Below, one piece after another: positions 8,220-40,967 of a stretch of DNA of 64,000 nucleotides. The stretch lies in assembly GCA_041223685.1 (NCBI GenBank), contig JBCLQR010000015.1; one strand, 5' to 3'. The DNA is from Lachnospiraceae bacterium 62-26. GTDB taxonomy: Bacteria > Bacillota > Clostridia > Lachnospirales > Lachnospiraceae. The position numbers and the translations under genes are program-made. Position 1 is the first letter of the stretch. Each line of letters opens with the position of its first letter. The notes beneath the pieces were generated by a model that ran no database searches, was not told the DNA's origin, and saw only the letters and a program-made list of their open reading frames with translations.

Positions 8220-8230
8220 AGAGGATAGAT

Positions 8231-9658: not shown

Positions 9659-9660
9659 GG

Positions 9661-9786
9661 ATGTTTAATGTGATTGATCCAGAGAGAGCCGTAATTGCGG
9701 CGGGGGTAGTAATTGTAATCGGAATTGTGATCTTTGTTGTGAGAAACAGCAAGATGTTAGGAAGCAGATTGAGGAGCAGATATGAA
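9661..9786 (+). CDS. Possible 41-aa single-TM peptide between LCP and CapD-like genes
   Basis: ATG 3 nt after the LCP stop with GAGGGAGAGAA RBS; hydrophobic core AVIAAGVVIVIGIVIFVV; end overlaps next gene start by 5 nt; not in ORF track (<60 aa). Confidence 0.35.
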
Positions 9787-20109: not shown

Positions 20110-22377
20110 ATGGGTATTTTATATAATGAACAGGCAGGGATTTTTAAACTGGATGCGCTGGATACCAGTTACGTGATCGGTATCTTTGACGATGAGAGGT
20201 TTGTCTCGCATCTATATTATGGAAAGAAGATCATAGACTCGGATGTGCGTTATCTCTACGGTCCGTTATACCAGGTCCGTCCGTCGGTACTGCCGGGGCA
20301 GGCGGGGCGTATCATGGATGCAGTCCCCTTTGAATATCCGACCTTCGGATGCGGGGATTATCGTGAGCATTGTCTCGAGGTGGAGACGGTTGACGGGTAT
20401 CATGCCTGTGATCTGCGCTATGAAGCGCATAAGATTTATCCGGGCAAGCCGGCTCTTGAGGGACTGCCGTCGACTTTTGAGCGGGAAGCGGGTGATTGTA
20501 ACACGTTGGAACTGGTCTGCCGGGATAAGGTACTGAATCTTGGAGTAACGCTTCTTTATACGGTATTTGAACAGCTTAACGTGATTACCCGTGCTGTTCT
20601 TGTTACGAATGAAGATTCGAATGCTGTGTATATAAAAAGAGTCCTGTCAGGATGCGTGGAATTCGATCATCAGAACTTTGATGTGATGACACTTCACGGA
20701 AGCTGGGAGAGGGAATGCGGGCCGGTCCGCACGCCGCTGCGGCAGGGAAAGATCGTTACAGAAAGTACCAGGGGAGAGTCCGGTCCTACGGACAATCCGT
20801 TTCTGGCTGTGCTTTCCTGTGACGCCACAGAAGATACCGGAGAGGTATTTGCCATGAATCTGGTATATTCCGGCAATTTCCTTGGAGTTGCACAAGGCCA
20901 TCATTTTCGCGGTACACGGATCGTAATGGGAATCAATCCGGTCAATTTCAGCTGGAAACTGGAGCCGGGCGATACTTTTACGGCTCCGGAGGTTGTGATG
21001 GTCTATTCTGACCGGGGGCTTGGGAAAATGAGCAGGACCTTTCATGATCTGTACAGAGGGCATCTGATCCGTGACGTTTATCCGGATACGTCAAGGCCGG
21101 TCCTGATCAATAACTGGGAAGCTACGTATTTTGGGTTTACCTTTGACAGGCTGATTGAGATTGCGGCAGAGGCGTCGAAGTGCGGTATCGAATTATTTGT
21201 GCTGGACGACGGATGGTTTGGAGACCGGAACGATGAAACGAAAGGATTAGGAGACTGGTTCGTCAATGAAGAAAAGCTGCCGGGCGGTATCGCCCGCCTT
21301 TCAAAGGAGATCAACAAGCTTGGCATGAAGTTCGGACTGTGGATCGAGCCGGAGATGGTAAGTCCCGATTCTGAGCTGTTTCGCGAGCACCCGGATTGGG
21401 CGATACAGATTCCGGGAAGGCACCGGTCGTTGTTCCGACATCAATATGTTCTGGACTGGTCCAGAAGAGAAGTGCGAAGCCATATCTATGATATGATCCA
21501 TCAGGTGCTATCCGGCGCAAATGTTGAGTATATTAAGTGGGATATGAACCGTACTCTGACAGAGGCGGCGTCTGCGGCGCTTCCGGCAGACCGTCAGGGC
21601 GAGCTGTGCCACCGGTATGTACTGGGAGTCTATGAGATCATGGGAAGGCTCAGAGAGGATTTCCCTTCACTGCTTCTGGAAAATTGTTCTGCGGGCGGTT
21701 CGCGGTTTGACCCGGGCGTGCTCTATTACAGCCCTCAGATCTGGGGTTCCGACGATTCAGACGCGATAGAGCGGATCCAGATAGAGATGGGAGCCTCCAT
21801 GTGCTATCCTCTTTCCACGATAGGCGCGCATGTGAGCGCGGTGCCTAATCATCAGACCGGCAGGATCACGCCGCTTGAGACGCGGGGATATGCGGCCATG
21901 GCCGGGACGTTTGGGTATGAGCTTAATATTGCGCAGATGAGCGAGGCGGAGAAGGCGGTTATCCGTGAGCAGGTGGATATTTATCATAAATATAATTGGA
22001 TCGTGAAGGAAGGAGATCTCTACCGGATCGGAGATCCTTTTGCAAACCGTGATCATGCATGTTGGATGGTTGTATCCAGGGATAAGAAGGAAGCGCTCGT
22101 GACTTATATCCAGACACATGCTCTGCCGGGGTATTTCGGTTCTGCAAGAAAGCTGAGGCTGAAAGGATTGATGGATGAGGCGGTTTACAGGGCGGAGGTG
22201 ATCTCTGTCTCGTCAGAGGTTGTGAACGGGGATGCGCATCTGGAAGGCGGGCAGAATGCAGGAAAAGGCCGTGAGGTGCTGGAAGTGTCCGGATCGGCGC
22301 TTATGAACGCCGGATACTGGATGGAGCGTCTGGGAGGCGATTATATGGGGATGATGATACATCTGAAAGCCGAATAG
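20110..22377 (+). CDS. GH36 alpha-galactosidase
   Basis: 755 aa; GH36 catalytic region motifs FVLDDGWFGDRNDETKGLGDW, KWDMNR, ENCSAGG; adjacent GPH sugar symporter. Confidence 0.9.
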   Translation: MGILYNEQAGIFKLDALDTSYVIGIFDDERFVSHLYYGKKIIDSDVRYLYGPLYQVRPSVLPGQAGRIMDAVPFEYPTFGCGDYREHCLEVETVDGYHACDLRYEAHKIYPGKPALEGLPSTFEREAGDCNTLELVCRDKVLNLGVTLLYTVFEQLNVITRAVLVTNEDSNAVYIKRVLSGCVEFDHQNFDVMTLHGSWERECGPVRTPLRQGKIVTESTRGESGPTDNPFLAVLSCDATEDTGEVFAMNLVYSGNFLGVAQGHHFRGTRIVMGINPVNFSWKLEPGDTFTAPEVVMVYSDRGLGKMSRTFHDLYRGHLIRDVYPDTSRPVLINNWEATYFGFTFDRLIEIAAEASKCGIELFVLDDGWFGDRNDETKGLGDWFVNEEKLPGGIARLSKEINKLGMKFGLWIEPEMVSPDSELFREHPDWAIQIPGRHRSLFRHQYVLDWSRREVRSHIYDMIHQVLSGANVEYIKWDMNRTLTEAASAALPADRQGELCHRYVLGVYEIMGRLREDFPSLLLENCSAGGSRFDPGVLYYSPQIWGSDDSDAIERIQIEMGASMCYPLSTIGAHVSAVPNHQTGRITPLETRGYAAMAGTFGYELNIAQMSEAEKAVIREQVDIYHKYNWIVKEGDLYRIGDPFANRDHACWMVVSRDKKEALVTYIQTHALPGYFGSARKLRLKGLMDEAVYRAEVISVSSEVVNGDAHLEGGQNAGKGREVLEVSGSALMNAGYWMERLGGDYMGMMIHLKAE

Positions 22378-24163: not shown

Positions 24164-25546
24164 ATGAATAATACTTCTACAACGGACGGAAAGCTTACCT
24201 GGAGAATCCGGGTTTCCTATGCAGGCGGAGACGTGGCGTGTAACGTGATCTTCGGAATGGTCGGAACGCTGCTTACACTTTTTTATACGGATTATGTGGG
24301 GATCAATCCGGCGACGGTCGGTATGGTCATGCTGATCTCACGTCTGTTTAACGGTGTTTCAGATCTGGTCATGGGAATGATCGTGGAGCGCACCAATTCA
24401 AAATGGGGGAAATCAAGGCCCTGGATTTTGTGGATGAGCGTGCCATACGCGCTGTCAGCCGTTCTTTTGTTTACCGTGCCGCATTCTTCGGCGATGGTGC
24501 AGGCCGTCTACATATTTGTAACCTATAATTTCTGCACGACCATATGCTATACGGCCGTCAATCTCCCCTACGGAAGTCTTTCGGCCATGATGACACGGAT
24601 ATCGGCAGAGAGAGATATGCTGAGCGTTGTGAGGATGGGGCTGTCTCCGCTTGGAAGGATTATGGCAGTGACATTTACCCTTCCTCTGGTGAAGCTGTTC
24701 GGGGATGATCAGGCGGCATGGGTTAAGACGATGGCGGTGTGGGCCGTGATCGCGCTGATCCTTCTGGTCATCTGCTTTGTAGAATGTAAGGAGACTGTAG
24801 TGATCACCGCGAAGAAGGAGGCGAAGACGGTTTCGACAGGAAAGGGACTGAAAGCGCTGGTTACGAATCAGTATTTCTGGGCTGTCCTTGTGCTTTGGAT
24901 GCTGCAAAGCGTATCCTTTGGGATATCCGGTACGATCCTTCCATACTATTGTAAATATATTTTCCATAATGATACCTGGATGTACAGCGCGCTCTATCTG
25001 ACAGAGACCTTGGTACTGGTCGCATGTATCTTCCTGTGTGCTCCGCTGATCAGGAAGTATGGCAAGAGAAATGCGGCCTTTGCAGGTGCGGTGACCGCCC
25101 TTGCGGGACAGCTGTTATTCTTTTTGAATCCATACAGCTTCACGTGGATGGTGGGAAGCTGTGTACTCCGTGCAGTAGGGCTGGCGCCTTTGAATGCGGC
25201 GGTATTCGGAATGATCGGGGATGTGGTGGAATTCGGACAATGGAAAACGCATATCCGTCAGGAGAGCCTGATATTCGCGGGCGGTTCCATCGGTACGAAG
25301 GTGGGTGCGGGACTGGCGTCTGCGCTCATGACAGGAATGCTCTCTGCGGCAGGATATATCAGCACGTCAACAGGAAGCGTGACACAGCCGGAGTCCGCGC
25401 TGAACTGTATTGTTACCATCTATAAGTTCGGGCCGGTGATCGTTGCCGGGATTGCAGTGATCACGCTTGCGCTGTATAAGCTTGATAAGAAGTATCCGTC
25501 TATCATGGAGGAACTGATGAAGAGAGAGGCACAAGGAGAGTTATAA
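24164..25546 (+). CDS. Glycoside-pentoside-hexuronide (GPH):cation symporter, MelB-like
   Basis: 460 aa, 12 TM; GPH signature region (VSYAGGDVACNVIFGMV..YTDYVGINPATVGMVMLISRLFNGVSDLVMG..RTNSKWGKSRPWIL). Confidence 0.85.
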   Translation: MNNTSTTDGKLTWRIRVSYAGGDVACNVIFGMVGTLLTLFYTDYVGINPATVGMVMLISRLFNGVSDLVMGMIVERTNSKWGKSRPWILWMSVPYALSAVLLFTVPHSSAMVQAVYIFVTYNFCTTICYTAVNLPYGSLSAMMTRISAERDMLSVVRMGLSPLGRIMAVTFTLPLVKLFGDDQAAWVKTMAVWAVIALILLVICFVECKETVVITAKKEAKTVSTGKGLKALVTNQYFWAVLVLWMLQSVSFGISGTILPYYCKYIFHNDTWMYSALYLTETLVLVACIFLCAPLIRKYGKRNAAFAGAVTALAGQLLFFLNPYSFTWMVGSCVLRAVGLAPLNAAVFGMIGDVVEFGQWKTHIRQESLIFAGGSIGTKVGAGLASALMTGMLSAAGYISTSTGSVTQPESALNCIVTIYKFGPVIVAGIAVITLALYKLDKKYPSIMEELMKREAQGEL

Positions 25547-25748: not shown

Positions 25749-26691
25749 ATGGGAATCTTAAATTATGCCGGCAGGAGCTTAAGAACTGTGACGGCAATTA
25801 TGCTTGGGTTATGTGTGATATCGGGATGTGCACGCAGAGAGAGCGCGGAATCTGAGGAAGAGCCGTATACGATTGGCGTGGTTACGAAGTCCAGAGACAG
25901 TGAGTATTGGATGTCTGTGTTCGGGAATGGAGAAGGCGGCCGGAGATTACAGAGTGTCTGTCAGGATCATTTCCCCGGATTCAGAGTCCAATGACAAGAT
26001 GCAGAAGAAGATGATCCATGATCTGATACAACAGAACGTGGATGCCCTGGCGATCTCCCCGATCTCTTCTTATGACGCCCCCTATCTAGAAGAGGCAGAA
26101 GAAGAGGGGATAAGAGTGGTTGCATACGATACGAAGATCATGGCGGACGGGATACCGTACATAGGGATAGATAACCGCAAGGCGGGGGAAGAGCTTGCCG
26201 CAGATATGGCAGGACGGCTTTCGAACTGTGGAAAGGTAGGGATTGTTGCGGGTGATCTGAGGCAGACAGCGCATTCAGAACGAGTGGAGGGTATCCTCTC
26301 CTACATAGAGAAGAATACGGACATTGAGATTGCGTTTGTCGAGAGCGGGTATGCGAATCTTCTGATTTCGGATGCGGAGATATCAAGGATATTCTCAGAG
26401 CATCCGGATATTGACGGGATATTTGCCACCAGCGGGGTTACGGCCCTTGGGATCCGGCAGTATCTGGGAGAGTCTCCGGTACTTGTGATGACGGTGGACG
26501 CCCAGCAGGATGCGCTGACTGCGGTCGCAAGCGGGAAGCTTGCCGCGCTGGCTGCGCAGTCCGGATATGAGATCGGATACGAGACGGTCCGCTTTATCGC
26601 CGAGAACAGGGAGAATGACGATGGCATATTGGAAGACAGGATATTAGACGCAGATATTTTGACAAAAGACAATATAGATGAGTGGCAGTAA
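25749..26691 (+). pseudogene. Frameshifted lipoprotein-type periplasmic sugar-binding protein (PBP1, RbsB/LacI-type), sensor partner of the downstream kinase
   Basis: Frame 0 (25749..25994) encodes lipobox LGLCVISGC and domain start TIGVVTKSRDSEYWMSV; the domain continues in the +1 frame (SGMEKAAGDYRVSVRIISPDS.. to 26691); junction in the TCTGTGTTCGGG run near 25917-25923. Confidence 0.6.
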
Positions 26692-26714
26692 ATAAGTACC
26701 TAAGGAGACAGGGT

Positions 26715-28526
26715 ATGTTCCATAGTATGAGAAGTAAGATGATCCTGGCAATGCTTGTGGTGACAGGCTGTGCGGTAGTTCTGGTTACCGCGATGTTCTA
26801 TCAGAGATCTGCCGGGATGATAGAAGAGGATTACGTGGAGAACCTCTATGGCAGGCTCCGTCAGATGGGCGATGCGCTGGACGAATCCTTAAAGGAGATC
26901 TATTTTCTCACGGTACAGGCTTCCTGTGATGAGAAGATTCTTGCAGGAACGGAAGCTTATCTTTCTGAGGGTGAGGAACAGAACCTGACGGAGCTTGCAA
27001 AGATGCTTCGGGATTATTCCGGAAGACACAGCGAGGCAGGGTGCTTCTATCTGGTGATTCCTGAAAAACGGATGATCGTGACGTCTCTGGAGTATCCGGT
27101 ATATCACAAGGAGATATCGGAGGAGAAGCTTGATGAGATTGAGAAGACGGGGACGGCCTCCCTTACACCGGCGCTTATCAAAGATCCGCTGAGGGAACAG
27201 GATCATATCCTGGTATTTGTAAGCCCGGTGGAGGCGGATAACGGCGGGATATGTGCTTATGTTATGAGTTGCCTGAAAGAACGGACGCTGTATTATAATT
27301 ACCTTGATAATCTGGAAGGCGGAGAAACCTCGAGGGCGGCGCTTCTGGATGAGAATGGAAGGATCGTATCAGCGAAGCGTCTGGAACATGTGGGCATGTA
27401 TTATCCGGCAGAGCAGGAGCAGGGTTATGCCGGGACGCAGAAGGACCGTGAGGGACAAAAAAGCAAGGACGGCCGGGATATGATCTTCGTACAGTATCGG
27501 GCTGATTTCTCCGGATATTCGTTTCTGCTGGAGCGGGAGAAGAATGAAGTGTTAGCCGACTTAAGAGAGATACGCTCTTATCTGGCAGTGATTCTCCTGG
27601 CGGTCCTTGGATGTGTGGCGGTTCTGATGGTTGTGATCACGAAAGCCATGTATCAGCCCTTAAAGCGCCTGACAGAGACGATGGGGCAGGTAAGCAGGGG
27701 CGGACTGGAATGTCGTGTGGAAGTGACGACAAAGGATGAGATCGGCCTCCTGTCCGGTGAATTCAATGATATGCTGGACCATATTGAAGATCTGATCGGC
27801 CGGCTTTTGCAGGAGGAAATGCTGAAAAAAGATGCGGAGCTTGAGGCGCTTCAGTATCAGATCACGCCTCATTTCATGTACAATACACTGAATTCCATCA
27901 AGTATGCCGCGCTGTTAAAGGGCGAGGATGAGATTGGCGGTCTGCTTGAGGATTTTATAGAGCTTCTTCAGGCAAGTATCAATAAGAAGGGAAAGTTCGT
28001 TACTGTTGCGGAGGAGATCCATTTTCTTAAGAACTACATGAACTTGTAGCGTATGCGCTATGAAGAGGAAATCGTGGTTGATTACCAGATACAGCAGGAG
28101 GCTTATGCCTGTTTCCTTCCAAGGCTGATGCTCCAGCCGCTTGTGGAGAATGCGATCCTGCACGGGCTTGATCTGAGAGGCAAAAGGAACAGGATCGTGA
28201 TCGGCGGAGACGTAGAGGAGGGCCGGCTAAAGCTGTGGGTACAGGATTACGGCAGAGGAATGTCACAGGAGCAGATAGCGCGTCTCTTACAGGAGACGCA
28301 CAAGAAGGAGAAGGGGCTGTCCGGAATCGGCGTGGCGAATGTGAAGGAACGTCTGCGGCTGTATTATGGTGACGCCGGGCATGTGACGTGTGTAAGCAGT
28401 GACGCAGGTACGAAGATCTGTATGTACCTGCCTGCATACAGGGAGCAGAACCAGTATGCACTGTATGGGTTTGATATGCAGAAGGAAAAGGAGCAAGGAT
28501 ATGATCAGAACGGTGATTGTGGATGA
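26715..28526 (+). pseudogene. YesM-like sensor histidine kinase interrupted by an in-frame TAG
   Basis: N part (to 28049) has 2 TM + HAMP + His_kinase signature LQYQITPHFMYNTLNSI; TAG at 28047-28049; same frame continues RMRYEEE.. with HATPase_c (LQPLVENAILHGL, DYGRGM, GLSGIGVANVKERL) to 28526; a CAG codon at the stop position would give the family-typical ..NLQRMRY.. Confidence 0.6.
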
Positions 28527-30288: not shown

Positions 30289-31188
30289 ATGTTTGACAAG
30301 AACAAAGTAAAACTTGGAATTGCGCCCATTGCATGGACGAACGACGATCTGCCGGATCTGGGAGGAGAGAACACATTTGAGCAGTGTGTCAGTGAGATGG
30401 CGCTGGCCGGATTTACGGGATCGGAGGTAGGAAACAAGTATCCTAAGGATCCGGAAGTCCTGAGGAAGGCTTTGGAGCTTAGAGGGATTGAGATCTGTAA
30501 TCAGTGGTTCTCCTCTTTCCTGATCACGAAGCCGTTTGAAGAGGTGGAGAAGGAGTTCCGTGCACAGCTTACATTCTTAAAGGCCATGGGAGCGAAGATC
30601 ATCGGCGCTTCTGAGCAGAGCCACAGTGTGCAGGGACAGCAGGATACGCCGATCTTCGGGCATAAGTATGTGATGAACGACGAAGAGTGGAAGACCTTCT
30701 GCGACGGCATGAACCGTCTTGGCAAGATTGCGAAGGAGGAGTACGGGATTGCCCTTACCTTCCATCATCATATGGGAACCGTGGTACAGAACCCGGATGA
30801 GGTGGAGCGCATGATGGAGAACACGGATCCGGAATATGTAAGCCTGCTGTTTGATACGGGGCATTTTACATACTGCGGGGCTGATCCGCTTGAGATGGTG
30901 ACCAAGTATGTGGACAGGATCAAGCATGTCCACCTGAAGGATATCCGTCCGGAGGTAGTAGAGAAGGTCAAAGCAGAGAACTTAAGCTTCCTTGAAGGTG
31001 TAAGGATGGGAACCTTTACGGTGCCGGGAGACGGATGCATTGATTTTGATCCTATTTTCAAGGTTCTTGAGGATCACAATTATGAAGGATATATGCTGGT
31101 AGAGGCGGAGCAGGATCCGGCGAAGGCGAATCCGTTAGAGTATGCCGTTAAGGCAAGGAAGTTTATCGCAGAGAAGACAGGGCTTTAA
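30289..31188 (+). CDS. iolE: IolE-like (myo-inosose-2 dehydratase family) xylose-isomerase-like TIM-barrel protein, paralog 1
   Basis: 299 aa; N-terminal [37 protein letters not shown] and internal [15 protein letters not shown] motifs typical of the IolE family. Confidence 0.75.
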
Positions 31189-31212
31189 ACCAGAGAAGAC
31201 AGGGCTTTAAAC
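31169..31212 (+). repeat. Perfect 22-bp tandem duplication spanning the iolE-like stop codon
   Basis: CAGAGAAGACAGGGCTTTAAAC at 31169-31190 repeated exactly at 31191-31212. Confidence 0.8.
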
Positions 31213-31274
31213 CGGCGCGGAAAGATTGCCGGTAAGTGATACAGTCACATAAACAGGAAGGAGATAAGAAGATT

Positions 31275-32288
31275 ATGGTTACAGTAGGTATTATCGGAGC
31301 AGGAAGAATCGGAAGAGTTCACGTGGAGAGCATTTGTACAAAGGTGGGCAATGCAAAGATCAAGGCCCTTGCGGATCCGTTCATGAACGAGGAGACAGAA
31401 CTCTGGGCAAAGAAGATGGGTGTGGAGAAGACGACGAAGGATTACAAGGAGATCCTTGCAGATCCTGAGATCGATGCAGTGCTGATCTGTTCCTCCACAG
31501 ATACACATTCACCAATCTCTGTAGAGGCGATCCAGGCAGGAAAGCATGTATTCTGCGAGAAGCCGATCGACCATGATGTGGCGAAGATCAAGGAGGTTAT
31601 AACTGCGCTTGAGAAGAACCAGGTGAAATACCAGGTAGGCTTCAACCGCAGATTCGACCACAACTTTGAGGCGGTAAGAGATGCGGTGGCGGCAGGCAGG
31701 ATCGGAGATACACATATCATCAAGATCACATCCAGAGATCCGGAGCCGCCGTGTGCAGACTATGTGAAGGTATCAGGCGGAATGTTCCTGGATATGACCA
31801 TCCATGATTTCGATATGGTGCGTTTCCTTGCAGGATGCAATGCAACAGAGGTTTATGTAGAGGCAGCGGTCCTTGTGGATCCGGCGATCGGAGAAGCAGG
31901 AGACGTAGATACGGCAGTGATCACGCTCAAGATGGAGAACGGCGCGATCGCAGTTATTGATAATTCAAGACAGGCCGTATATGGATACGACCAGAGAGCG
32001 GAAGTATTTGGCTCTAAGGGAATGGTGGCAACGGGAAATGACACTGCAAGTGCCGCAGTGATCAGTAACGTGGACGGCGTGACTGGAGAGAAGCCGCTTC
32101 ACTTCTTCCTGGAGCGTTATATGGATGCATATGCGAAGGAGATTAAGTGCTTTATCGAGGCAATCGAGAATGATTCTGAAACTCCTCTTGGAGTGGAGGA
32201 CGGATTGCAGCCGGTACTGATGGGACTTGCGGCGAAGAAGTCCTTGGAGGAGCATCGTCCGGTGAAGATCTCTGAGATCAGCGCGTAA
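31275..32288 (+). CDS. Gfo/Idh/MocA family NAD-dependent inositol dehydrogenase paralog (IolX/IolW-like)
   Basis: Start ATG 31275 (MVTVGIIGAGRIGRVH, RBS AAGGAGATAAGAAG); Rossmann GxGxxG, conserved EKP motif (VFCEKPI) and GFNRRFD. Confidence 0.8.
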   Translation: MVTVGIIGAGRIGRVHVESICTKVGNAKIKALADPFMNEETELWAKKMGVEKTTKDYKEILADPEIDAVLICSSTDTHSPISVEAIQAGKHVFCEKPIDHDVAKIKEVITALEKNQVKYQVGFNRRFDHNFEAVRDAVAAGRIGDTHIIKITSRDPEPPCADYVKVSGGMFLDMTIHDFDMVRFLAGCNATEVYVEAAVLVDPAIGEAGDVDTAVITLKMENGAIAVIDNSRQAVYGYDQRAEVFGSKGMVATGNDTASAAVISNVDGVTGEKPLHFFLERYMDAYAKEIKCFIEAIENDSETPLGVEDGLQPVLMGLAAKKSLEEHRPVKISEISA

Positions 32289-32425: not shown

Positions 32426-32575
32426 TATAATTCTCAACTGCATAGAATAAAAGCTATATAGAATCCGGCGGGGATTTGCTTCTATTTTTATAAGGTGATA
32501 TAATAGACCTTGACTTTCGGGAGACACTACATCAGAAGGATATGTGCAGTCTGCCCGCAGCAGGGAGGGAAGGAT

Positions 32576-33604
32576 ATGGCAGTAACCTTACAACAGATCG
32601 CAGAAGCGGCCGGAGTCTCCAGAGGAACGGTAGACCGGGCTTTGAACAATAGAGGAAGAATCAATGCGGAGGTGGCGGACAGGATCCGGAGAATCGCAGA
32701 TGAGATGGGATATCAGCCCAACCGGGCGGGCAGGGCGCTGGCGATGTCGAAACGGTCGATCACCATAGGCGTGCTTATCCAGGCGGCGGAGACGCCGTTT
32801 ATGGAGAATGTCATTGAGGGCGCAGAGGATGCCAAGGCAGAGGTAGAGCGTCTCGGCGCGGATGTGATCATCCGCAGGATGGAGGATTTTGATGCCGGGA
32901 AGGCGGTTGAGGCGATGTATGAGCTTAAGAAGGCGGGATGCAACGGGATCGCCATGATCCCGGTGGACGACGGGGAGCTTAAGGAGACGGTCAACAGATT
33001 CGCCGATGAGAATATACCGGTGATCACGTTTAACTCGGATATCGAAGAGTCGAAGAGGCTCTGCTTTGTGGGGCAGGATACTTACCAGAGCGGAAGAGTG
33101 GCGGCGGGCCTGATGGCCGATATTCTCCCGGCAGACGGGAAGGTACTTGTCATATCAGGATATCCGACCAGTTACGGACATAAGAACCGGACAAAAGGAT
33201 TTCTTGGAGAATTTGCGGCGCTCAGGGAGGATGTCCGGGTACTGGATGTACAGTATGATTTTGACGACGACCATATGGCGGAGATGATCACGAGGGGAAT
33301 GCTTAAGGAGTACGAGGATCTGTCCGGCATCTATCTTGCGGCGTCCGGGGTAGAGGGTGTGTGTAAGGCGCTTAAGGATTTTGGCATGGAAGAGAAGGTG
33401 AAGGTGATCTCTAATGACCTGACTGCCCGGAACGTGCAGTATCTTAGGGAGGGGAAGATCCGCTTCCTGATCGGGCAGGACGGTTACCGCCAGGGGTATG
33501 AGCCGGTCATGCTGTTATTTGAGAAGATTTTTGACGGCAAAGAACCAGAGAAAGAATATGCCTACACGGAGATTGTGATCAAGACCAGGTATAATCTTGT
33601 ATAG
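32576..33604 (+). CDS. LacI family transcriptional regulator
   Basis: Start ATG 32576 (MAVTLQQIAEAAGVSRGTVDRALNN, RBS GGGAGGGAAGGA); N-terminal HTH plus periplasmic-binding-protein-like sugar-binding core. Confidence 0.85.
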   Translation: MAVTLQQIAEAAGVSRGTVDRALNNRGRINAEVADRIRRIADEMGYQPNRAGRALAMSKRSITIGVLIQAAETPFMENVIEGAEDAKAEVERLGADVIIRRMEDFDAGKAVEAMYELKKAGCNGIAMIPVDDGELKETVNRFADENIPVITFNSDIEESKRLCFVGQDTYQSGRVAAGLMADILPADGKVLVISGYPTSYGHKNRTKGFLGEFAALREDVRVLDVQYDFDDDHMAEMITRGMLKEYEDLSGIYLAASGVEGVCKALKDFGMEEKVKVISNDLTARNVQYLREGKIRFLIGQDGYRQGYEPVMLLFEKIFDGKEPEKEYAYTEIVIKTRYNLV

Positions 33605-33670: not shown

Positions 33671-33739
33671 GATAAAATAACAACATAAAGAAACAAAGTC
33701 ATGAGAAACATATAAAAAGCAGGAAAGGTGGAAAACAAA

Positions 33740-34744
33740 ATGTTAAGAGTAGGAGTTATCGGTTGCGGCGGAATGGGAAGAGACCATATCAGGAGGATCA
33801 CAGAGAGGATTCAGGGAGCTGAGGTTGTGGCAGTATCAGATGTATTTGAAGAGGGTGCGAAGAAGGCGGCAGAGATTGCCGGAGGAGCCAGGGTATATAC
33901 GGACGGCAAAGCACTGATCAATGATCCGGAGGTTGACGCGGTTCTGATTGTTTCACCCGGATTTGCGCATGTAGAGGATCTTCTTGAGGCAATTAAGGCC
34001 GGCAAGCGAGTATTCTGCGAGAAACCGCTCTGTACAACAGCGGAGGACTGCAAGAAGGTTATGGACGCGGAAGAGGCATCCGGCAGGCATCTGATCCAGT
34101 TAGGATTCATGCGCCGTTACCACAAGGGATACAACCAGATCAAGGATGCGATTGCCACAGGAGAGTACGGCGAACCGCTGATGATGCACTGTACGCACAG
34201 GAATCCTGAGGTGGGGACAAATTACAACACGCCGATGGCAGTACATGATACCGTGATCCATGAGATTGATCTCTGCCACTGGCTGGTAGATGATGATTAT
34301 GAGAGCGTACAGGTGATCATGCCGAAGGTTACCAAGTACTCACATTCAGAGCTTAAGGATCCTCAGATCATGCTGATGCGCACGAAGAGCGGTATCTGCA
34401 TTGACGTAGAGTGCTTCGTGAACTGCAAGTTTGGCTATGATATCAACTGCGAGGTTGTATGTGAGGACGGCGCTCTTAAGATGGGAGCTCCGATGGCTCC
34501 GTCTATCCGTAAGAATGCGGCGGCTTCTACAGAGATCACGACAGACTGCTTCGTACTGTTCAAGGATGCATATGACGCGGAGATCCAGAACTGGGTAGAT
34601 TGTGCAAAGAAGGATGTGATTGAAGGGCCGACCACGTGGGACGGATATCTGGCGGCAGTTACAGCGGATGCGCTGGTGAAGGCTCAGGAAACGGGGAATA
34701 TCGAGAAGGTTGTAACGGTTGAGAAGCCGGAATTTTATAAGTAA
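33740..34744 (+). CDS. iolG: myo-inositol 2-dehydrogenase-like (IolG-type) Gfo/Idh/MocA oxidoreductase
   Basis: Start ATG 33740 (MLRVGVIGCGGMGRDH; the track start 33728 is a GTG); VFCEKPLCTTAEDC, QLGFMRRYH, GEPLMMHCTHRNP resemble the B. subtilis IolG pattern. Confidence 0.8.
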   Translation: MLRVGVIGCGGMGRDHIRRITERIQGAEVVAVSDVFEEGAKKAAEIAGGARVYTDGKALINDPEVDAVLIVSPGFAHVEDLLEAIKAGKRVFCEKPLCTTAEDCKKVMDAEEASGRHLIQLGFMRRYHKGYNQIKDAIATGEYGEPLMMHCTHRNPEVGTNYNTPMAVHDTVIHEIDLCHWLVDDDYESVQVIMPKVTKYSHSELKDPQIMLMRTKSGICIDVECFVNCKFGYDINCEVVCEDGALKMGAPMAPSIRKNAAASTEITTDCFVLFKDAYDAEIQNWVDCAKKDVIEGPTTWDGYLAAVTADALVKAQETGNIEKVVTVEKPEFYK

Positions 34745-34831: not shown

Positions 34832-35665
34832 ATGAAATTAGGATTTAACGAGGCAACAGCGCTGGAGTGTAAAGGGCAGTCCCTGCTTGCAGATATGGAG
34901 GCATGTGAGAAGTATGGTTTTGATTATATAGAGATTAGATTTGACTGTGTAAAGGATTATCTGAAGGAGCATACGTTAGAGGACCTGGCAGACTGGTTTA
35001 AGAATCATCATCTGAAGCCGTGGGCGTATAACACGCTGATTTTCTTTAACCAGAGAGATGAAGCGGGTGTGAAGGAGATTGATGAGGAGACCGATTTTAT
35101 CATCGAGGTATGCAGGGCGATCGGGATGAAGATGCTGATCACGGTTCCGCAGTTTGATGTAAAGGATAAGAGCGTGTCCGAGATTAAGGAGGAGGCTGTG
35201 GAAAGACTTCGCTATCTGTCCGACAAGGTTGGCTCTGACATCAGGATTTCCCTGGAGTTCTGCGGCGCTCCTAACTGTTCCATCAATCAGTTTGGGACGG
35301 CGTATGACGTAGTGAAAGCGGTAGACAGAGAGAATGTGGGAATTACGGTTGATACCTTCCATTTCCATGAGATGTGTTCTAAGATCGAGGATCTTAAGAA
35401 GGCTGACGGCAGAAAGATTTTCGCATATCACCTGAATGACTGCGAGGATCTGCCTCTTGGTTCCTGCGGCGATGACAAGAGACTGTGGCCGGAAGAGGGT
35501 GTGGTCGATCATGCGGCGATTGCCGGCGCGCTGAAGGAGATTGGATTCGACGGAGTGTGCACGATAGAGGAATTCCGTCCGGAGTATTATGCAATGTCTC
35601 ATGAGGAGAATGTGAAGAAGGCGGCAGAGGTAACGAAGGCATTTGTAGAGAAATATTTCGGCTAA
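34832..35665 (+). CDS. Sugar phosphate isomerase/epimerase, xylose-isomerase-like TIM barrel (IolI/inosose-isomerase-like)
   Basis: 277 aa; AP-endonuclease-2/xylose-isomerase TIM-barrel pattern (..DYIEIRFD.., ..VDTFHFHE.., ..YHLNDCED..). Confidence 0.75.
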   Translation: MKLGFNEATALECKGQSLLADMEACEKYGFDYIEIRFDCVKDYLKEHTLEDLADWFKNHHLKPWAYNTLIFFNQRDEAGVKEIDEETDFIIEVCRAIGMKMLITVPQFDVKDKSVSEIKEEAVERLRYLSDKVGSDIRISLEFCGAPNCSINQFGTAYDVVKAVDRENVGITVDTFHFHEMCSKIEDLKKADGRKIFAYHLNDCEDLPLGSCGDDKRLWPEEGVVDHAAIAGALKEIGFDGVCTIEEFRPEYYAMSHEENVKKAAEVTKAFVEKYFG

Positions 35666-35702: not shown

Positions 35703-36599
35703 ATGTTAGATAAGAATAAAGTTTCACTTGGTATAGCGCCGATCGGATGGACGAACGACGATATGCCGGACCTGGGGAAAGAGAATACATTTGAACAGAC
35801 GGTAAGCGAGATGGCGCTTGCAGGATTTACGGGATCAGAGGTGGGCAGCCATTATCCTGCGGATCCGGCAGTGCTAAAGAAAGCGCTGGATCTGAGAGGA
35901 ATGACGATCTGTAATCAGTGGTTTTCTTCTTTCCTGATCAGCAGACCGTATGAAGAGACGGAGGAAGCATTTATTAAGCAGTGCGATTTTCTGAAAAAGG
36001 TGGGTGCAAGGTGCATCGGCGTGTCCGAGCAGAGCTTCAGCATCCAGGGAATGACGGACCATCCGATCCAGGAGGGCAAATATGTCATGAATGATGAGGA
36101 GTGGGATCTGCTTACGGGGGGCCTCAACAGGCTTGGAAGGATTGCGAAGGAGAAAGGAATGGTACTTACCTTCCATCATCATATGGGAACGGTTGTGCAG
36201 ACGGAGGAGGAGATAGACCGGTTCATGGCATCTGTGGATCCCGAACTTGTATTCTTGTTGTTTGACAGCGGACACTTGTCGTTTGCAGGGATAGATCCGG
36301 AGAAGGTGCTGAGAAAATATGTGGACCGTGTGCGTCATGTCCACCTGAAAGATCTGAGGAAGCGTGTTGTGGAACAGTCGCGCAATGAGAAATGGAGTTT
36401 CCTGAAAGGAGTGCGCGAGGGAACGTTTACCGTGCCCGGCGACGGGGATGTGGATTTTGCACCGATTTTTAAGATCCTTGAAGAGGCTGATTACAGAGGA
36501 TGGGTAGTGGTAGAGGCGGAGCAGGATCCGGCGAAGGCAAACCCGCTTGAGTACGCTCTTAAGGCAAGAAAGTATATTGCAAAGCATACGGGCTTATAG
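35703..36599 (+). CDS. iolE: IolE-like (myo-inosose-2 dehydratase family) TIM-barrel protein, paralog 2
   Basis: 298 aa; same family motifs as 30289..31188 ([37 protein letters not shown]; LTFHHHMGT; HVHLKD). Confidence 0.75.
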   Translation: MLDKNKVSLGIAPIGWTNDDMPDLGKENTFEQTVSEMALAGFTGSEVGSHYPADPAVLKKALDLRGMTICNQWFSSFLISRPYEETEEAFIKQCDFLKKVGARCIGVSEQSFSIQGMTDHPIQEGKYVMNDEEWDLLTGGLNRLGRIAKEKGMVLTFHHHMGTVVQTEEEIDRFMASVDPELVFLLFDSGHLSFAGIDPEKVLRKYVDRVRHVHLKDLRKRVVEQSRNEKWSFLKGVREGTFTVPGDGDVDFAPIFKILEEADYRGWVVVEAEQDPAKANPLEYALKARKYIAKHTGL

Positions 36600-36641: not shown

Positions 36642-37541
36642 ATGAAGATAGCATTCGATGTAGATGTATTGGCGAAGCAGATGGGTATTAATGATATGGT
36701 TCATCAGGTTGCGGACTGGGGTTACAAATATATTGAGCAGTCCCCGCACCCGCGTATCAACCCGTTCTACAAGCATCCGTTGTTTTCTAAAGAGTGTGAG
36801 GCGGAGTATAGAAAGGCTCTTCGCGAGACAGGTGTGGAGATCTCCTCTTTTATCGTTGTATACCGCTGGTCCGGTCCGACAGAGGAGCAGCGGCAGATGG
36901 CGGTGGCAAACTGGAAGCGGATGGTTGAGATTGCAGTAGATATGGGAGTACAGGTGATCAACACGGAGCTTTCCGGCGACCCCAATCAGCAGGAAATCTG
37001 CAATGGTATGTGGTTCCGCTCTATGGATGAACTGCTGCCGTTGTTTGAGAAGGAAGGGATCCGTGTAGAGATACAGTCACATCCGTGGGATTTCTGCGAG
37101 TTGAATAATGAGACCTGCGATATGGTGAAGAGTTATCGTTCCGATAATCTGAAATATGTATATTCTTCCCCGCACGGTTTCTTCTACGACAAGGGCGCGG
37201 GCGATGTCCGTTCGATGCTCAAGTACGCGGGCGATGATCTGAGCCATGTATTATTTGCAGATACGTACAACCAGACCAAGGATTGCAGATATATCCTGAA
37301 TCCGCCGTGGCTTAACAGTATGGGAAGAGAAGATGTTTCCATTCATCAGCATAATCCGATGGGAGAAGGGGATGTGGATTTTGACGGGATCTTCGAGACG
37401 CTGAGAGAGATGGATTTTGCAAACAGACAGTTTAAAGCAGGCGGAGACGCAATCTCCTGTGTATCTATCTTCGGATATCCGGAGCGCATGGCGGTTGAAG
37501 CTCCAAAGGCAAGAGAGATCATTGAGCGTGAATTATTATGA
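36642..37541 (+). CDS. Sugar phosphate isomerase/epimerase family TIM-barrel protein
   Basis: 299 aa; xylose-isomerase-like fold pattern; stop overlaps the next gene start (ATGA at 37538-37541). Confidence 0.7.
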   Translation: MKIAFDVDVLAKQMGINDMVHQVADWGYKYIEQSPHPRINPFYKHPLFSKECEAEYRKALRETGVEISSFIVVYRWSGPTEEQRQMAVANWKRMVEIAVDMGVQVINTELSGDPNQQEICNGMWFRSMDELLPLFEKEGIRVEIQSHPWDFCELNNETCDMVKSYRSDNLKYVYSSPHGFFYDKGAGDVRSMLKYAGDDLSHVLFADTYNQTKDCRYILNPPWLNSMGREDVSIHQHNPMGEGDVDFDGIFETLREMDFANRQFKAGGDAISCVSIFGYPERMAVEAPKAREIIERELL

Positions 37542-39661
37542 AATCAGCGGCGGAATTACTGAATTATAAACAAAAGAATAAAGATATGGATGAGTTCATC
37601 AGGGTGCCCGTGTCTGAAAAGCTGGCGTACTGCTTCGGCGATCCGGCTTTGACGCTGATGTATACGATGACAACCACACTTCTGATCTACTTCTATACCA
37701 ATGTGGTTGGTATTTCGGCAGGATCGGTCGGAATGATCATGCTGGTGTCCCGCGTGTTCGACGGCTTCTCGGATGTGTTGATGGGAACCATTATAGACCG
37801 GACTCATTCCAAATACGGGAAATCCAGAATATGGATCTTACGGCTGGCGGTTCCTTATGCGTTAGCGGCAATTATCCTTTTTACGATGCCGGGCATGGGG
37901 CCGAAGGGGAAGATTGTATATGCGTTTGTGACTTATAATATCATGAATACGGTTGTATATACGGCGATCAGCCAGCCGTTCCATGCTCTGGGATCCCTGA
38001 TGAGCCGTGACAGGAGAGAGCGCGATGTAATCTGTAATATCCGTATGGTACTGTCCATTACGGCGAGCATGGTCATCACGGCATTCACGCTTCCGCTGAT
38101 CAATAAGACTGCGGGCATCATCCATCATGAACAGGCGGCGTGGATCCTCGTTACGGCTGTGTATGCCGTCATCTCAGTGTTCGTACTGCTGAACACCTAT
38201 GCGACATGTACCGAGCGTGTACAGACAGCCCAGAAGAGCAAGGAGGATATCCCGTTCTGGATGGCGCTTAAGGCTACGGTGACGAATCCGTATTTCCTGA
38301 TCGCGCTGGGGCTGATGCTGTTCTATACGGTGTATCAGATCATTATAGGGACGGATCTTACATATTATTGTCAGTATGTATTGAATGATGTGGATCTGGT
38401 CATGCCGTTGTCGGCTTCCGAGAAGATTGCAACTATCATCGGAATCGCCCTGCTTCCGAAGCTTCTTCCCAAATTCGGAAAACGAAATCTGATCTGTGCG
38501 GGATGTATTCTTGGCGTTGCCGGGCAGCTCATCTTCCTGATGAATGTTACAAGCGTTCCGTTAGGAGTTGTTACGTGTATTATGAGGGGATTCGGAATCG
38601 CCCCATTCTATGGTGTACAATATTCGCTGCCAAGTGATGCCATTGAATATGGCCAATGGAAGACAGGGCTTAGGATCGAGGGGCTGATGTTCTCATCCAT
38701 GAGCATGGGGCAGAAGGCCGGTTCGGGATTCACGTCTGCTATTATGGGTGCAATCCTCTCTATGGCGGCATTCGACGGACTGAAAGCGACGGCGGCTGAA
38801 CAGACAGCAGAAGCGATTGCGGTGATCAAAGGGTTCTATCTCTATGTACCGATCGCAATCTGGATGATTATGTTCCTGATTGCTCTGTGCTATAAGCTTG
38901 ATAAGAAATATGACCAGATGATGCGGGATCTGATCGCGCGGGAAAGCAAAGCGGAGCATACGGAAAGCGGGCGTGATGATACAGAGCTTATCGGGCAGAA
39001 TGATCACTTAAGCAGATTTAACGCAGACAACCAGGCCGTTGATTGGAAGCAGGGGCAGATTAATATCGCGATCGGGCGGCTCTATGGGGCAAGTGGAAGA
39101 AAGATTGCGGAAGCACTTGCAAAGGAGCTTGGATGCCGGGTGTATGACCGGCAGATCATCTGTATGCTGGGCGAGAAATTCGGAATGGAGACAACGGATA
39201 TCGAGAAGCTTAAGCGGTATCTGGATTCCTATAATGAAGGACGGCAGGTAACGTTCTCCCCTTATTCCATGCCGGGCGCCGGGGTTGCGGAGGATATTAT
39301 AGACACGCAGGTATTTGAAGAGCAGAGCCGGCTGATCATGAAGCTTGCGAAGACGGCGCCGGGAGTCTTCCTCGGACGTTGTGCGAACTTCTTATTGGCG
39401 GAGCTTCCTCACACCTATTCCTTCTTCATCTATGCGGATGATGAATACAGGGAAAGAGAAGGACGGGAATATTACCAGGGACAGACGCTTGAGAAGCTGA
39501 AAGAGCGTGATGAGAAGAGGAGTGAATATTATCTGCGGTACACCGGCACGAAGCGGGACGATCCAGGATGCTATGATATGGTCATCAACGTAAGCAGGAC
39601 GGGCGTTGCCGGCGCGGTGCAGGTGATTATGGATTATATTAAGAAGAAAGAGGAAGAATAG
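37538..39661 (+). CDS. GPH-family sugar:cation symporter fused to a C-terminal cytidylate-kinase-like (Cytidylate_kin2) P-loop domain
   Basis: 707 aa single ORF; residues 1-470 are a 12-TM MelB-like transporter (..YTNVVGISAGSVGMIMLVSRVFDGFSDVLMG..RTHSKYGKSRIWIL); residues 515-707 (INIAIGRLYGASGRKIAEALAKELGCRVYDRQII..) match the standalone cytidylate-kinase-like family. Confidence 0.7.
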   Translation: MKSAAELLNYKQKNKDMDEFIRVPVSEKLAYCFGDPALTLMYTMTTTLLIYFYTNVVGISAGSVGMIMLVSRVFDGFSDVLMGTIIDRTHSKYGKSRIWILRLAVPYALAAIILFTMPGMGPKGKIVYAFVTYNIMNTVVYTAISQPFHALGSLMSRDRRERDVICNIRMVLSITASMVITAFTLPLINKTAGIIHHEQAAWILVTAVYAVISVFVLLNTYATCTERVQTAQKSKEDIPFWMALKATVTNPYFLIALGLMLFYTVYQIIIGTDLTYYCQYVLNDVDLVMPLSASEKIATIIGIALLPKLLPKFGKRNLICAGCILGVAGQLIFLMNVTSVPLGVVTCIMRGFGIAPFYGVQYSLPSDAIEYGQWKTGLRIEGLMFSSMSMGQKAGSGFTSAIMGAILSMAAFDGLKATAAEQTAEAIAVIKGFYLYVPIAIWMIMFLIALCYKLDKKYDQMMRDLIARESKAEHTESGRDDTELIGQNDHLSRFNADNQAVDWKQGQINIAIGRLYGASGRKIAEALAKELGCRVYDRQIICMLGEKFGMETTDIEKLKRYLDSYNEGRQVTFSPYSMPGAGVAEDIIDTQVFEEQSRLIMKLAKTAPGVFLGRCANFLLAELPHTYSFFIYADDEYREREGREYYQGQTLEKLKERDEKRSEYYLRYTGTKRDDPGCYDMVINVSRTGVAGAVQVIMDYIKKKEEE

Positions 39662-39677
39662 CTGATAAAAATCCGAT

Positions 39678-39734
39678 ATTGCGTATGTATAGCTTCCGCG
39701 GGGGTTAGACCGCCAGAGCTTTTACATACGCAAT
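39678..39734. terminator. Long-loop hairpin between convergent genes (possible bidirectional terminator)
   Basis: 12-bp stem ATTGCGTATGTA (39678-39689) / TACATACGCAAT (39723-39734) enclosing a GC-rich 33-nt loop. Confidence 0.35.
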
Positions 39735-39761: not shown

Positions 39762-40967
39762 TCATGCCTGCGGTTGTATATCGGAGGCATATCTGTCATA
39801 GTATAGTGATGATTCATCTTCAGTGAGACCAAAATGTTTTTGCAGTTTCATAAGGATTCTTCCCTTGGGGATCTGCTCGTCCAGGTTGTCTAGAATTAAT
39901 GCCTGTATGCCTTCTTCTTTGGCAATCCTGGCTTGTGCTTTAGCGTCCATAGCTTCTTTTTTAATAATTTCAGATTCCTTTTTAATAATTTCAGCTTCTT
40001 CCATAACAATTTCGGCTTCTTTTCTGGCGATTTCAGCCTTTTCTTTAACAATTTCAGCTTCTTTTCTGGCGATTTCAGCTTCCGCTTTAATAGCCTCAAC
40101 TTCTTTCTGGACAGATTTTAGAGCATCATCCCGAACTCCTGCGTGTACGACCTGCTCCAGGCTGCTCATCTGCGTAACCTCCCTCCACAATTCCGCATTG
40201 GCAGAGAAATCGATATATTCTGTTACTGTTGACATAAAGTCCTCTTTATGCGGATACATAATTGCATTCAGGAAACGAAAAAGGTCATATCCATCGTCTT
40301 CCTTACCCCCATTATACACCTCATTGCCTAATTTGATAACTACTAATGTCATCAGATCGTAGTTTTCTCTGGCCACGGAGCCGGGCGAGGTATTCCTGGT
40401 GTTGGTCGTCTCGTAAACGGAAATACTATAGCAGTCCTTCTTTGGGATATCATCCCGGCAGATAAAGATGCTGTAGCATTTGGAGAGAAGGTTGTAATCC
40501 GTGCCTTCATAGGCCAGTGACAGCTGGGAGGACAAACGGCGTGCAAGATAGTAAAATCCCCGCTTTTCAATCGGGTAACCTGGTTTATACGTCTTCTGCG
40601 GTTCCAGATCGATATGCAGGTTGATCTGGATATCTTCTGTAGAGAGCTGGGGATTCCGGGCCTGAAAGGCCAGATCAAAGTTAGTTGTTTTCTCATTGAG
40701 ATGAATGAATTCGGTGTTGCCGCAGCTGACTTTGGTGTTACTCCTTCCCGGCGATACTTCCGTGGTGTTGGTAATGGAATCCGGAACAATAAATTCTTGT
40801 ACTTCCTTTAAACTATATCCTTTGTATTCTGAGACGGTTCCTTTCAAGATAACTGCCAGCACCTCCAAGTGGCGCAGGATTGTTTTGCTTGGAGCGTCCT
40901 TACCGGCCGTGTCTGCGGTAGTCTGCAAAGCGCTAAGGGCAGCAATGCTTCCCTGAAGCTTATCCAT
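39762..40967 (-). CDS. Rpn family recombination-promoting nuclease/putative transposase (PD-(D/E)XK, YhgA-like)
   Basis: 401 aa; N-terminal nuclease-like region, central acidic heptad-like repeats (KEAEIARKEAEIVKEKAEIARKEAEIV), C-terminal ..LILDNLDEQIPKGRILMKLQKHFGL.. tail as in Rpn/Transposase_31 proteins. Confidence 0.6.
   Translation of the reverse strand: MDKLQGSIAALSALQTTADTAGKDAPSKTILRHLEVLAVILKGTVSEYKGYSLKEVQEFIVPDSITNTTEVSPGRSNTKVSCGNTEFIHLNEKTTNFDLAFQARNPQLSTEDIQINLHIDLEPQKTYKPGYPIEKRGFYYLARRLSSQLSLAYEGTDYNLLSKCYSIFICRDDIPKKDCYSISVYETTNTRNTSPGSVARENYDLMTLVVIKLGNEVYNGGKEDDGYDLFRFLNAIMYPHKEDFMSTVTEYIDFSANAELWREVTQMSSLEQVVHAGVRDDALKSVQKEVEAIKAEAEIARKEAEIVKEKAEIARKEAEIVMEEAEIIKKESEIIKKEAMDAKAQARIAKEEGIQALILDNLDEQIPKGRILMKLQKHFGLTEDESSLYYDRYASDIQPQA
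40007..40090. repeat. Two tandem 42-bp units (plus degenerate flanking copies) inside the Rpn-like gene
   Basis: CAATTTC(G/A)GCTTCTTTTCTGGCGATTTCAGC.. repeated at 40007-40048 and 40049-40090; encodes the EAEIxRKEAEI peptide repeats. Confidence 0.7.

Follow-up and report, generated by a model that had tools for sequence, protein, structure and literature searches.

A GPH-type symporter fused to a Cytidylate_kin2 domain in an inositol-type operon of Lachnospiraceae

Secondary transporters with a cytoplasmic accessory domain added to them are a known design. The Gram-positive lactose and raffinose permeases of the LacS/RafP type consist of a GPH symporter with 12 transmembrane (TM) helices followed by a C-terminal cytoplasmic EIIA-Glc-like domain of ~160-200 residues, which is not needed for translocation itself and which in LacS is regulatory. 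MelB of Salmonella and E. coli has no fused tail; its regulator is a separate protein of the phosphotransferase system (PTS), EIIA-Glc, which inhibits the symporter by binding to it (inducer exclusion), illustrating how a soluble regulator can dock at the cytoplasmic side. Cytoplasmic ligand-sensing domains also occur on other transporters, including CBS domains on OpuA, MgtE and ClC, STAS domains on SulP and RCK/TrkA domains on K+ transporters. Here we describe a protein of this design encoded in a 64,000-nucleotide stretch of DNA, referred to as the window, from Lachnospiraceae bacterium 62-26 (assembly GCA_041223685.1, contig JBCLQR010000015.1). A single uninterrupted open reading frame (ORF) at 37538-39661 (+) encodes 707 residues comprising a GPH/MelB-type symporter, a linker and a C-terminal Cytidylate_kin2 (PF13189) tail. 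It is a secondary transporter with an added cytoplasmic accessory domain.

The fusion resembles the LacS/RafP permeases in the overall arrangement of a 12-TM GPH symporter and a C-terminal cytoplasmic domain in the same size range, and the existence of tail-less and split orthologues in the same operon hints that here too the domain is not needed for translocation. The tail is of a different kind, having a Cytidylate_kin2 kinase fold rather than that of PTS_EIIA. No Pfam match to PTS_EIIA was found in the fusion protein, no HPr-dependent phosphorylation site is evident, and the operon is one for inositol-type catabolism instead of galactosides. With the CBS, STAS and RCK appendages it shares the character of a modular C-terminal cytoplasmic domain, fused or present as a separate subunit, that recurs on unrelated transporter families, although the fold of PF13189 is unlike theirs. 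A 2026 review describes LacS as an exception to the usual size of 400-550 residues among glycoside MFS transporters and as the sole GPH transporter recognized to have an extra domain (PMC13543919). No description of the present architecture was found in our literature search; it is unreported in the literature found, though visible in public domain annotations, and the NCBI name of the protein is plain GPH symporter.

A genuine gene fusion with a tethered tail

The original prediction described one 707-residue ORF joining a complete GPH/MelB-type symporter to a Cytidylate_kin2 domain, and Pfam and NCBIfam confirmed both parts over their full models. MFS_2 (PF13347) matched residues 31-456 (37628-38905) with an E-value of 2.9e-79 and 267 bits against a cut-off of 27 (model positions 2-427 of 427), and TIGR00792 ('gph') scored 312 bits against a cut-off of 231 (positions 1-436 of 437). 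PF13189 matched residues 509-686 (39062-39595) with an E-value of 1.5e-35 and 123 bits against a cut-off of 28 (positions 1-175 of 176). The 12-TM MFS fold of the N-terminal half is borne out by the helix pattern of its AlphaFold2 (AF2) model, by hydropathy and by end-to-end alignment to MelB, its closest solved structure (4M64, 7L16; E ~2e-36 over ~430 residues). MelB R52, D55 and D59 align with R72, D75 and D79 of the fusion, whereas MelB D124 is replaced by Ser145; D75, D79 and Ser145 are invariant within the clade. D55, D59 and D124 are the acidic residues of the MelB cation site in helices II and IV.

The two parts are joined without interruption, as had been claimed: codons 463-520 contain no in-frame ATG, GTG or TTG and no stop codon. 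TM12 is followed by a cytoplasmic helix at residues 454-476 (KLDKKYDQMMRDLIARE...; 38897-38965), seen in the AF2 model and present also in tail-less relatives and in the transporters of split pairs. A variable linker at residues 464-505 (38927-39052) is predicted to be disordered, with a predicted local distance difference test score (pLDDT) below 50 in the full-length model. Its column identity of 0.06 and 64% gaps among 109 homologues make it the sole poorly conserved, gap-rich segment. Pairwise ratios of nonsynonymous to synonymous substitution rates (dN/dS) lay at 0.02-0.06 in the transporter and at 0.06-0.11 in the tail, which is under purifying selection, and at 0.4-0.85 in the linker. 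Given this dN/dS pattern together with the variability and predicted disorder of the linker, the tail is a functional domain tethered flexibly by ~30-50 residues (~40 in this protein).

The full-length two-domain architecture is common to more than 110 protein clusters at 70-100% identity. The original prediction had proposed looking for the same fusion in other assemblies and related genomes. The identical 707-residue protein (P0001) was found on four contigs and in 42 member sequences from independent assemblies, and in a scan of one genome per species the fusion was in frame in 41 of 50 loci, from Blautia, Dorea and Faecalicatena. Carriers include the finished chromosomes of Blautia producta DSM 2950 and Clostridium sp. 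ASF356, and further B. schinkii, B. hominis, B. luti, Faecalicatena orotica DSM 1287 and Dorea sp. 5-2. Two gene orders keep the fusion, namely IolG-TIM1-IolE-TIM2-[fusion] in Dorea-like loci and IolG-TIM1-[fusion]-IolE-TIM2 in Blautia. It is a genuine, selected gene fusion. Two damaged copies were seen in metagenome-assembled genomes: at locus L034 (~8001-10073) the tail-containing ORF starts ~280 nucleotides into the transporter part, and at locus L053 (8107-9202) only a transporter fragment is present, out of frame with an intact-looking tail. These copies may be pseudogenes or assembly errors.

In close relatives the same operon occurs in three states: fused, split and tail-less. The split case (L004) has a transporter (87% identical) ending in a stop codon, then a 320-nucleotide AT-rich spacer with a hairpin and a ribosome-binding site (RBS; GAAAGGAG), and then a separate Cytidylate_kin2 gene of 202 codons (P0144) whose product begins MAKINIAIGRL, exactly at the domain boundary. 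The original prediction took a stop and a separate gene in other strains as the sign of an assembly or frameshift artefact. Such an arrangement does exist in L004, and likewise in loci L062, L066 and L056, but it does not have that meaning. The split relatives are not assembly errors but true two-gene arrangements, each having an RBS or promoter-like spacer of its own, and they occur beside 41 species with the fusion; the L004 spacer in particular is far from a point frameshift. With an identical protein in independent assemblies, in-frame fusions in 41 species-level genomes including finished chromosomes, and purifying selection on the tail, we regard an artefact of assembly, sequencing or frameshift that joined two genes as ruled out.

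The tail-less transporter is found in L001-L003 and L044-L048/L050, and the flanks of these loci hold no PF13189 member. In a neighbour-joining (NJ) tree of the transporter part, computed without bootstrapping, two tail-less forms are basal and the others are nested in the fused clade. The tail is accessory, because tail-less orthologues, basal as well as nested, exist in the same operon. The topology suggests one fusion followed by several losses or a fission. No degraded tail remnants were found 3' of the tail-less orthologues, and the case for loss is made by the unbootstrapped NJ topology only.

Association of the tail subfamily with transporters

Cytidylate_kin2 domains were said to occur normally as standalone proteins, and this is so. 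An exhaustive search of representatives matched the tail to 3,065 clusters at 50% identity; almost all are standalone proteins of ~200 residues, and the whole fused clade is contained in one representative. A word-indexed homologue search with the tail alone returned 23 matches, all close relatives and mostly short or partial. Several relatives of the tail are encoded next to a transporter as separate genes. The Cytidylate_kin2 gene lies 2 nucleotides after a 469-codon MFS_2 gene in L062-64 (P0147), inside a canonical IolD-IolB-...-IolG-IolE-IolA operon, and 14 nucleotides after an MFS_2 gene in L066 (P0151). In L056 (P0150) it stands between a MatE gene and an MFS_2 gene, 12 nucleotides ahead of the latter, and in L055 (P0146) it lies 14 nucleotides after TctB-TctA-TctC. 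No transporter adjoins it in L065 (P0148), and the contig of L149 (P0153) is too short to judge the neighbours. The MFS_2 partners in L062 and L066 share only ~37% identity with the transporter of the window, so the pairing spans divergent GPH lineages. Because relatives carry both parts as adjacent separate genes, the protein represents a conserved gene pair joined in Rosetta-stone fashion, with two genes as the ancestral or alternative state.

Transporter neighbours were present for 5 of 7 informative nearest relatives compared with 5 of 59 in a PF13189 subgroup used as control (Fisher p = 5e-4), the relatives being few and phylogenetically non-independent. The control consisted of 80 metagenome loci of a consensus-type PF13189 subgroup, collected by a scan with a 10-sequence alignment. 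Transporter association is a property of a subfamily and not of PF13189 as a whole; a general association is ruled out by the unenriched control subgroup and its housekeeping context (RluD, Dtd, GltX). In 18 of the control loci (L069-L148; for example L101, 2790-3821) the PF13189 gene is directly 3' of an RluD-type pseudouridine synthase gene, and Dtd- and GltX-like genes were noticed by eye to recur near genes of this subgroup. This suggests a housekeeping, RNA- or nucleotide-related role for another branch of the family.

Fusions to other membrane proteins were also detected. Among the 150 best representatives, PF13189 makes up the C-terminal part of two MATE efflux proteins (P0247, P0256) and four DUF6198 membrane proteins (P0188, P0214, P0251, P0231). 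In an NJ tree of the domain these fusions lie outside the GPH-linked clade, with the DUF6198 fusions forming their own clade and the two MatE fusions at two further places. Because the fusions fall in separate clades of this tree, the domain has been joined to membrane transporters at least three times. P0267 looks by eye like a truncated copy of a DUF6198-PF13189 protein. P0282 combines PF13189 with a long low-complexity Lys/Ala-rich C-terminal repeat extension.

These patterns bear on the possibility that the fusion is neutral, with the disappearance of a stop codon joining neighbouring genes and the tail keeping an independent cytoplasmic function that has nothing to do with transport, such as nucleotide metabolism. 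The gap in split pairs is only 2-14 nucleotides, so a single mutation can fuse them, and the apparent repeated loss of the tail and the housekeeping contexts of the control subgroup also fit this explanation. We give it a slim chance, however, since 41 species keep the fusion, even through operon rearrangement, since adjacency to transporters recurs across GPH lineages ~37% identical, and since MATE and DUF6198 proteins have acquired the domain independently. Tethering a soluble enzyme to the membrane is, moreover, normally selected against unless its function lies there.

Fold of the tail and its possible role

The original prediction had also suggested modelling the tail, and the AF2 model is confident (pLDDT 87.9, predicted template modelling score, pTM, 0.83), giving a fold like those of nucleoside monophosphate (NMP) and shikimate kinases. 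The best Foldseek matches were 3FDI (Eubacterium ventriosum) and 3HDT (Clostridium symbiosum), with E-values of 6e-12 to 2e-11 and template modelling (TM) scores (target) of 0.80-0.85. Shikimate and CMP kinases followed (E 1e-6 to 1e-4, TM ~0.5-0.65), and the alpha/beta fold of NMP kinases is present. 3FDI and 3HDT share the family of the tail as well as its fold (phmmer E ~1e-14, profile E 1e-59 to 1e-66) and have the R-x-x-G-S-G-G-[R/H] loop; they differ in being standalone soluble structural-genomics proteins, not linked to transporters as far as known. Our literature search found no function or publication for either. Searches on PF13189 function, on cytidylate kinase-like proteins with transporters, on 3FDI/3HDT and on inositol transport in Lachnospiraceae likewise returned no functional information. 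A 2026 atlas of the gut microbiome names 'cytidylate kinase-like family protein' as one of the most numerous and most strongly transcribed 'colonization factor' families and files the PF13189 family under nucleotide metabolism (PMC13601570), a classification apparently derived from the family name.

The tail had been called a P-loop domain. A P-loop-kinase fold is indeed present, but the loop is not canonical, and the Walker-A pattern GxxGxGK[ST] is absent from the tail. In its place is a degenerate glycine-rich loop, R514-L-Y-G-A-S-G-R-K522 (39077-39103), which in 115 diverse members of the family reads R (100%)-E/Q-Y/F-G-S-G-G (98%)-[R 64%, H 12%, K 8%]. Profile alignment to Cmk (1Q3T, 3R8C) places the invariant Arg at the first Gly of the P-loop. 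The position of the Walker-A Lys is G520 (Gly in 98% of the family) and that of the Mg-binding Ser/Thr is R521 (Arg, His or Lys in the family). The (d)CMP kinase model TIGR02173 gave the tail 16.9 bits, below its cut-off of 102. R514 ahead of the glycine-rich loop, G613-R614 and R661, the D-x-x-R arginine, are invariant in the 115 diverse PF13189 members and in 51 fused homologues, and D537, D658, Y665 and Y679 are nearly invariant in the family and kept in the fused clade. The tail thus resembles Cmk and AroK in overall fold and in a conserved arginine, with G613-R614 equivalent to the 'GRD' arginine of Cmk. It departs from them in its loop residues and in a long insertion at residues 551-588, which is partly disordered in the AF2 models. 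As judged from these alignments, the domain keeps the anion-binding pocket while the residues of canonical ATP-Mg chemistry are missing. ATP-dependent kinase chemistry appears doubtful, because the Walker-A Lys is replaced by Gly and the Ser/Thr by Arg, His or Lys. No PADLOC defence-system model matched the tail.

A catalytic role might nevertheless be imagined, in which the tail is a small-molecule kinase or phosphotransferase with an atypical P-loop that acts at the transporter exit on the imported substrate, or on an intermediate of the pathway, and traps it in the cell by phosphorylation. The nearest folds are those of shikimate kinases, which phosphorylate a carbocyclic polyol, and of CMP kinases. 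All members have the acceptor-site 'GR' arginine and a LID-like D-x-x-R, and in 84% of them the Gly in place of the Walker Lys is followed by a basic residue. The gene stands in inositol operons both in the window and in L062. We consider this explanation unlikely, because the Walker-A Lys and the Mg-binding Ser/Thr are missing family-wide and the residue at R521 varies (R in 64%, H in 12% and K in 8% of members, others in the rest). In addition, the transporters to which the domain is joined, or beside which it is encoded, handle unrelated substrates and work in opposite directions (MATE exporters, Tct tricarboxylate importers, DUF6198), and tail-less orthologues reside in otherwise identical operons. 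The textbook iol pathway also needs no kinase at its first step: free inositol is dehydrogenated first, and a PfkB-type kinase (IolC) acts only later.

We tentatively favor, at somewhat less than an even chance, a role for the tail as a non-catalytic sensor of a phosphate- or nucleotide-type ligand that modulates the transporter, by analogy with the EIIA tail of LacS. This reading draws on the finding that the tail is both under selection and dispensable, on the existence of fused, split and lost forms, on partners that import or export unrelated substrates, and on the degenerate loop. Because the partners include importers (GPH, Tct) as well as exporters (MATE), we argue for a role independent of the substrate. 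The GPH cation symporter serves a LacI-controlled inositol-type (iol) operon, and the tail subfamily is elsewhere a separate, co-directional gene of ~200 codons directly beside genes of secondary transporters. In the lineage of Blautia, Dorea and Faecalicatena the two genes merged, the old junction becoming a disordered tether of 30-50 residues. The tail keeps the kinase fold, the glycine-rich anion hole and R514, R614 and R661, whereas its loop has neither the Walker-A Lys nor the Mg-binding Ser/Thr. A phosphorylated or nucleotide-type metabolite, once bound, could then change how the tail docks on the cytoplasmic face of the transporter, and altered docking could tune uptake to the metabolic state of the cell, as with the EIIA-like tail in LacS. 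We infer each of these three steps, ligand binding, docking and regulation by the tail. Of the earlier suggestion that a nucleotide-binding tail could couple uptake to phosphorylation state or nucleotide sensing, a regulatory role in nucleotide or phosphate sensing survives as the most plausible reading, whereas the unqualified label of 'P-loop' nucleotide binding does not.

Several observations weigh against a sensor. With a pLDDT of 68.6 and a pTM of 0.55, the full-length AF2 model is poor and shows no docking interface. Since the tail appears to have been lost on several occasions, whatever regulation it provides is dispensable. The trees are unbootstrapped NJ trees. The basic R521 beside the missing Lys could support catalysis. 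Two further members of the tail clade, checked prospectively, gave no support, since P0157 (L150) follows a GH43 gene and P0153 is the one on the short contig. Polytopic neighbours were not enriched in the 80 control loci (9 of 107 compared with 19 of 291 in the background).

A structural or biogenesis role, such as dimerization, stabilization against proteolysis, membrane insertion or localization, would be compatible with the two chains per entry in both solved homologues, with the flexible linker as a tether and with the many unrelated membrane-protein partners. The invariant Arg triad and the Gly-rich loop at the phosphate-binding place of kinases point instead to a small-ligand site, and most family members are standalone with no membrane protein adjoining. 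Such a role therefore seems improbable to us.

Together, the fused and split gene pairs and the separate MATE and DUF6198 fusions provide a lead that at least one PF13189 subfamily acts with secondary transporters, probably as a sensor without catalysis. If confirmed, this would be a new regulatory module in secondary transport and would affect how nutrient uptake by gut anaerobes is modeled, here of inositol-type substrates by Blautia and Dorea. A wider proposal is that PF13189 includes unrecognized pseudokinase-type ligand-sensing regulatory subunits, separate or fused, of ion-coupled secondary transporters of the GPH, MATE, DUF6198 and tripartite tricarboxylate types. We offer this as speculative and rather doubtful; if true, these subunits would be a Firmicutes counterpart to transporter regulation of the EIIA-Glc, CBS or RCK type.

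The inositol-type operon and its surroundings

The fusion is the last gene of an operon preceded by a gene for a LacI-family regulator (32510-33604, +), which is syntenic in relatives. The first operon gene (33728-34744, +) encodes an IolG-like inositol/D-chiro-inositol dehydrogenase with GFO_IDH_MocA domains; its score against NF052679, 468 bits, is under the cut-off of 540. It is followed by TIM1, a TIM-barrel protein resembling sugar isomerases/epimerases by Pfam (34832-35665, +), by IolE, myo-inosose-2 dehydratase (35703-36599, +; TIGR04379, 414 bits against a cut-off of 290), and by TIM2, a xylose-isomerase-like TIM barrel by Pfam (36642-37541, +). The TGA stop of TIM2 overlaps the ATG start of the fusion as ATGA, just as originally described (36642-37541 against a start at 37538). 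The locus is an inositol-type utilization island, and the iol-type operon context indicates that the transporter is probably an importer of inositol, a cyclitol or a derivative. A consensus scan found no intrinsic terminator 3' of the fusion gene. Seventeen nucleotides past its stop is a perfect 12-bp inverted repeat, ATTGCGTATGTA ... TACATACGCAAT, with arms at 39678-39689 and 39723-39734 and a 33-nucleotide loop, which the scan did not call because it has no T-run.

Just upstream of the LacI gene, at 30289-32288 (+), are a second IolE (TIGR04379, 428 bits) and a canonical IolG (TIGR04380, 477 bits). The island thus has two sets of dehydrogenase/dehydratase genes, which may act on different isomers of inositol. 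Between 20 kb and 43 kb of the window no IolB, IolC or IolD was seen, and apart from the fusion the window has no PF13189 gene. A second GPH symporter, tail-less and 40% identical to the fused one, is encoded at 24164-25546 (+; TIGR00792, 311 bits), close to a GH36 alpha-galactosidase gene at 20110-22377 (+). Its C-terminus (...KLDKKYPSIMEELMKREAQGEL) is much like the ends of the MFS_2 partners of the split Cytidylate_kin2 genes in L062 and L066.

A gene for a YesM-like sensor histidine kinase (dCache, HAMP and His_kinase domains) at 26682-28526 (+) is broken by an in-frame TAG at 28047-28049 (...NYMNL*RMRYEEE...), and its ATPase-like remainder runs on in the same frame as a 157-residue ORF (28053-28526). 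It is a candidate pseudogene, sequencing error or case of read-through. Convergent to the fusion, a 401-residue ORF at 39762-40967 (-) has coiled-coil-like repeats of the KEAEI(A/V) type in its C-terminal half and no match in Pfam, NCBIfam or PADLOC. L005 and L007 also carry this ORF 3' of the fusion, with 77-83% identity.

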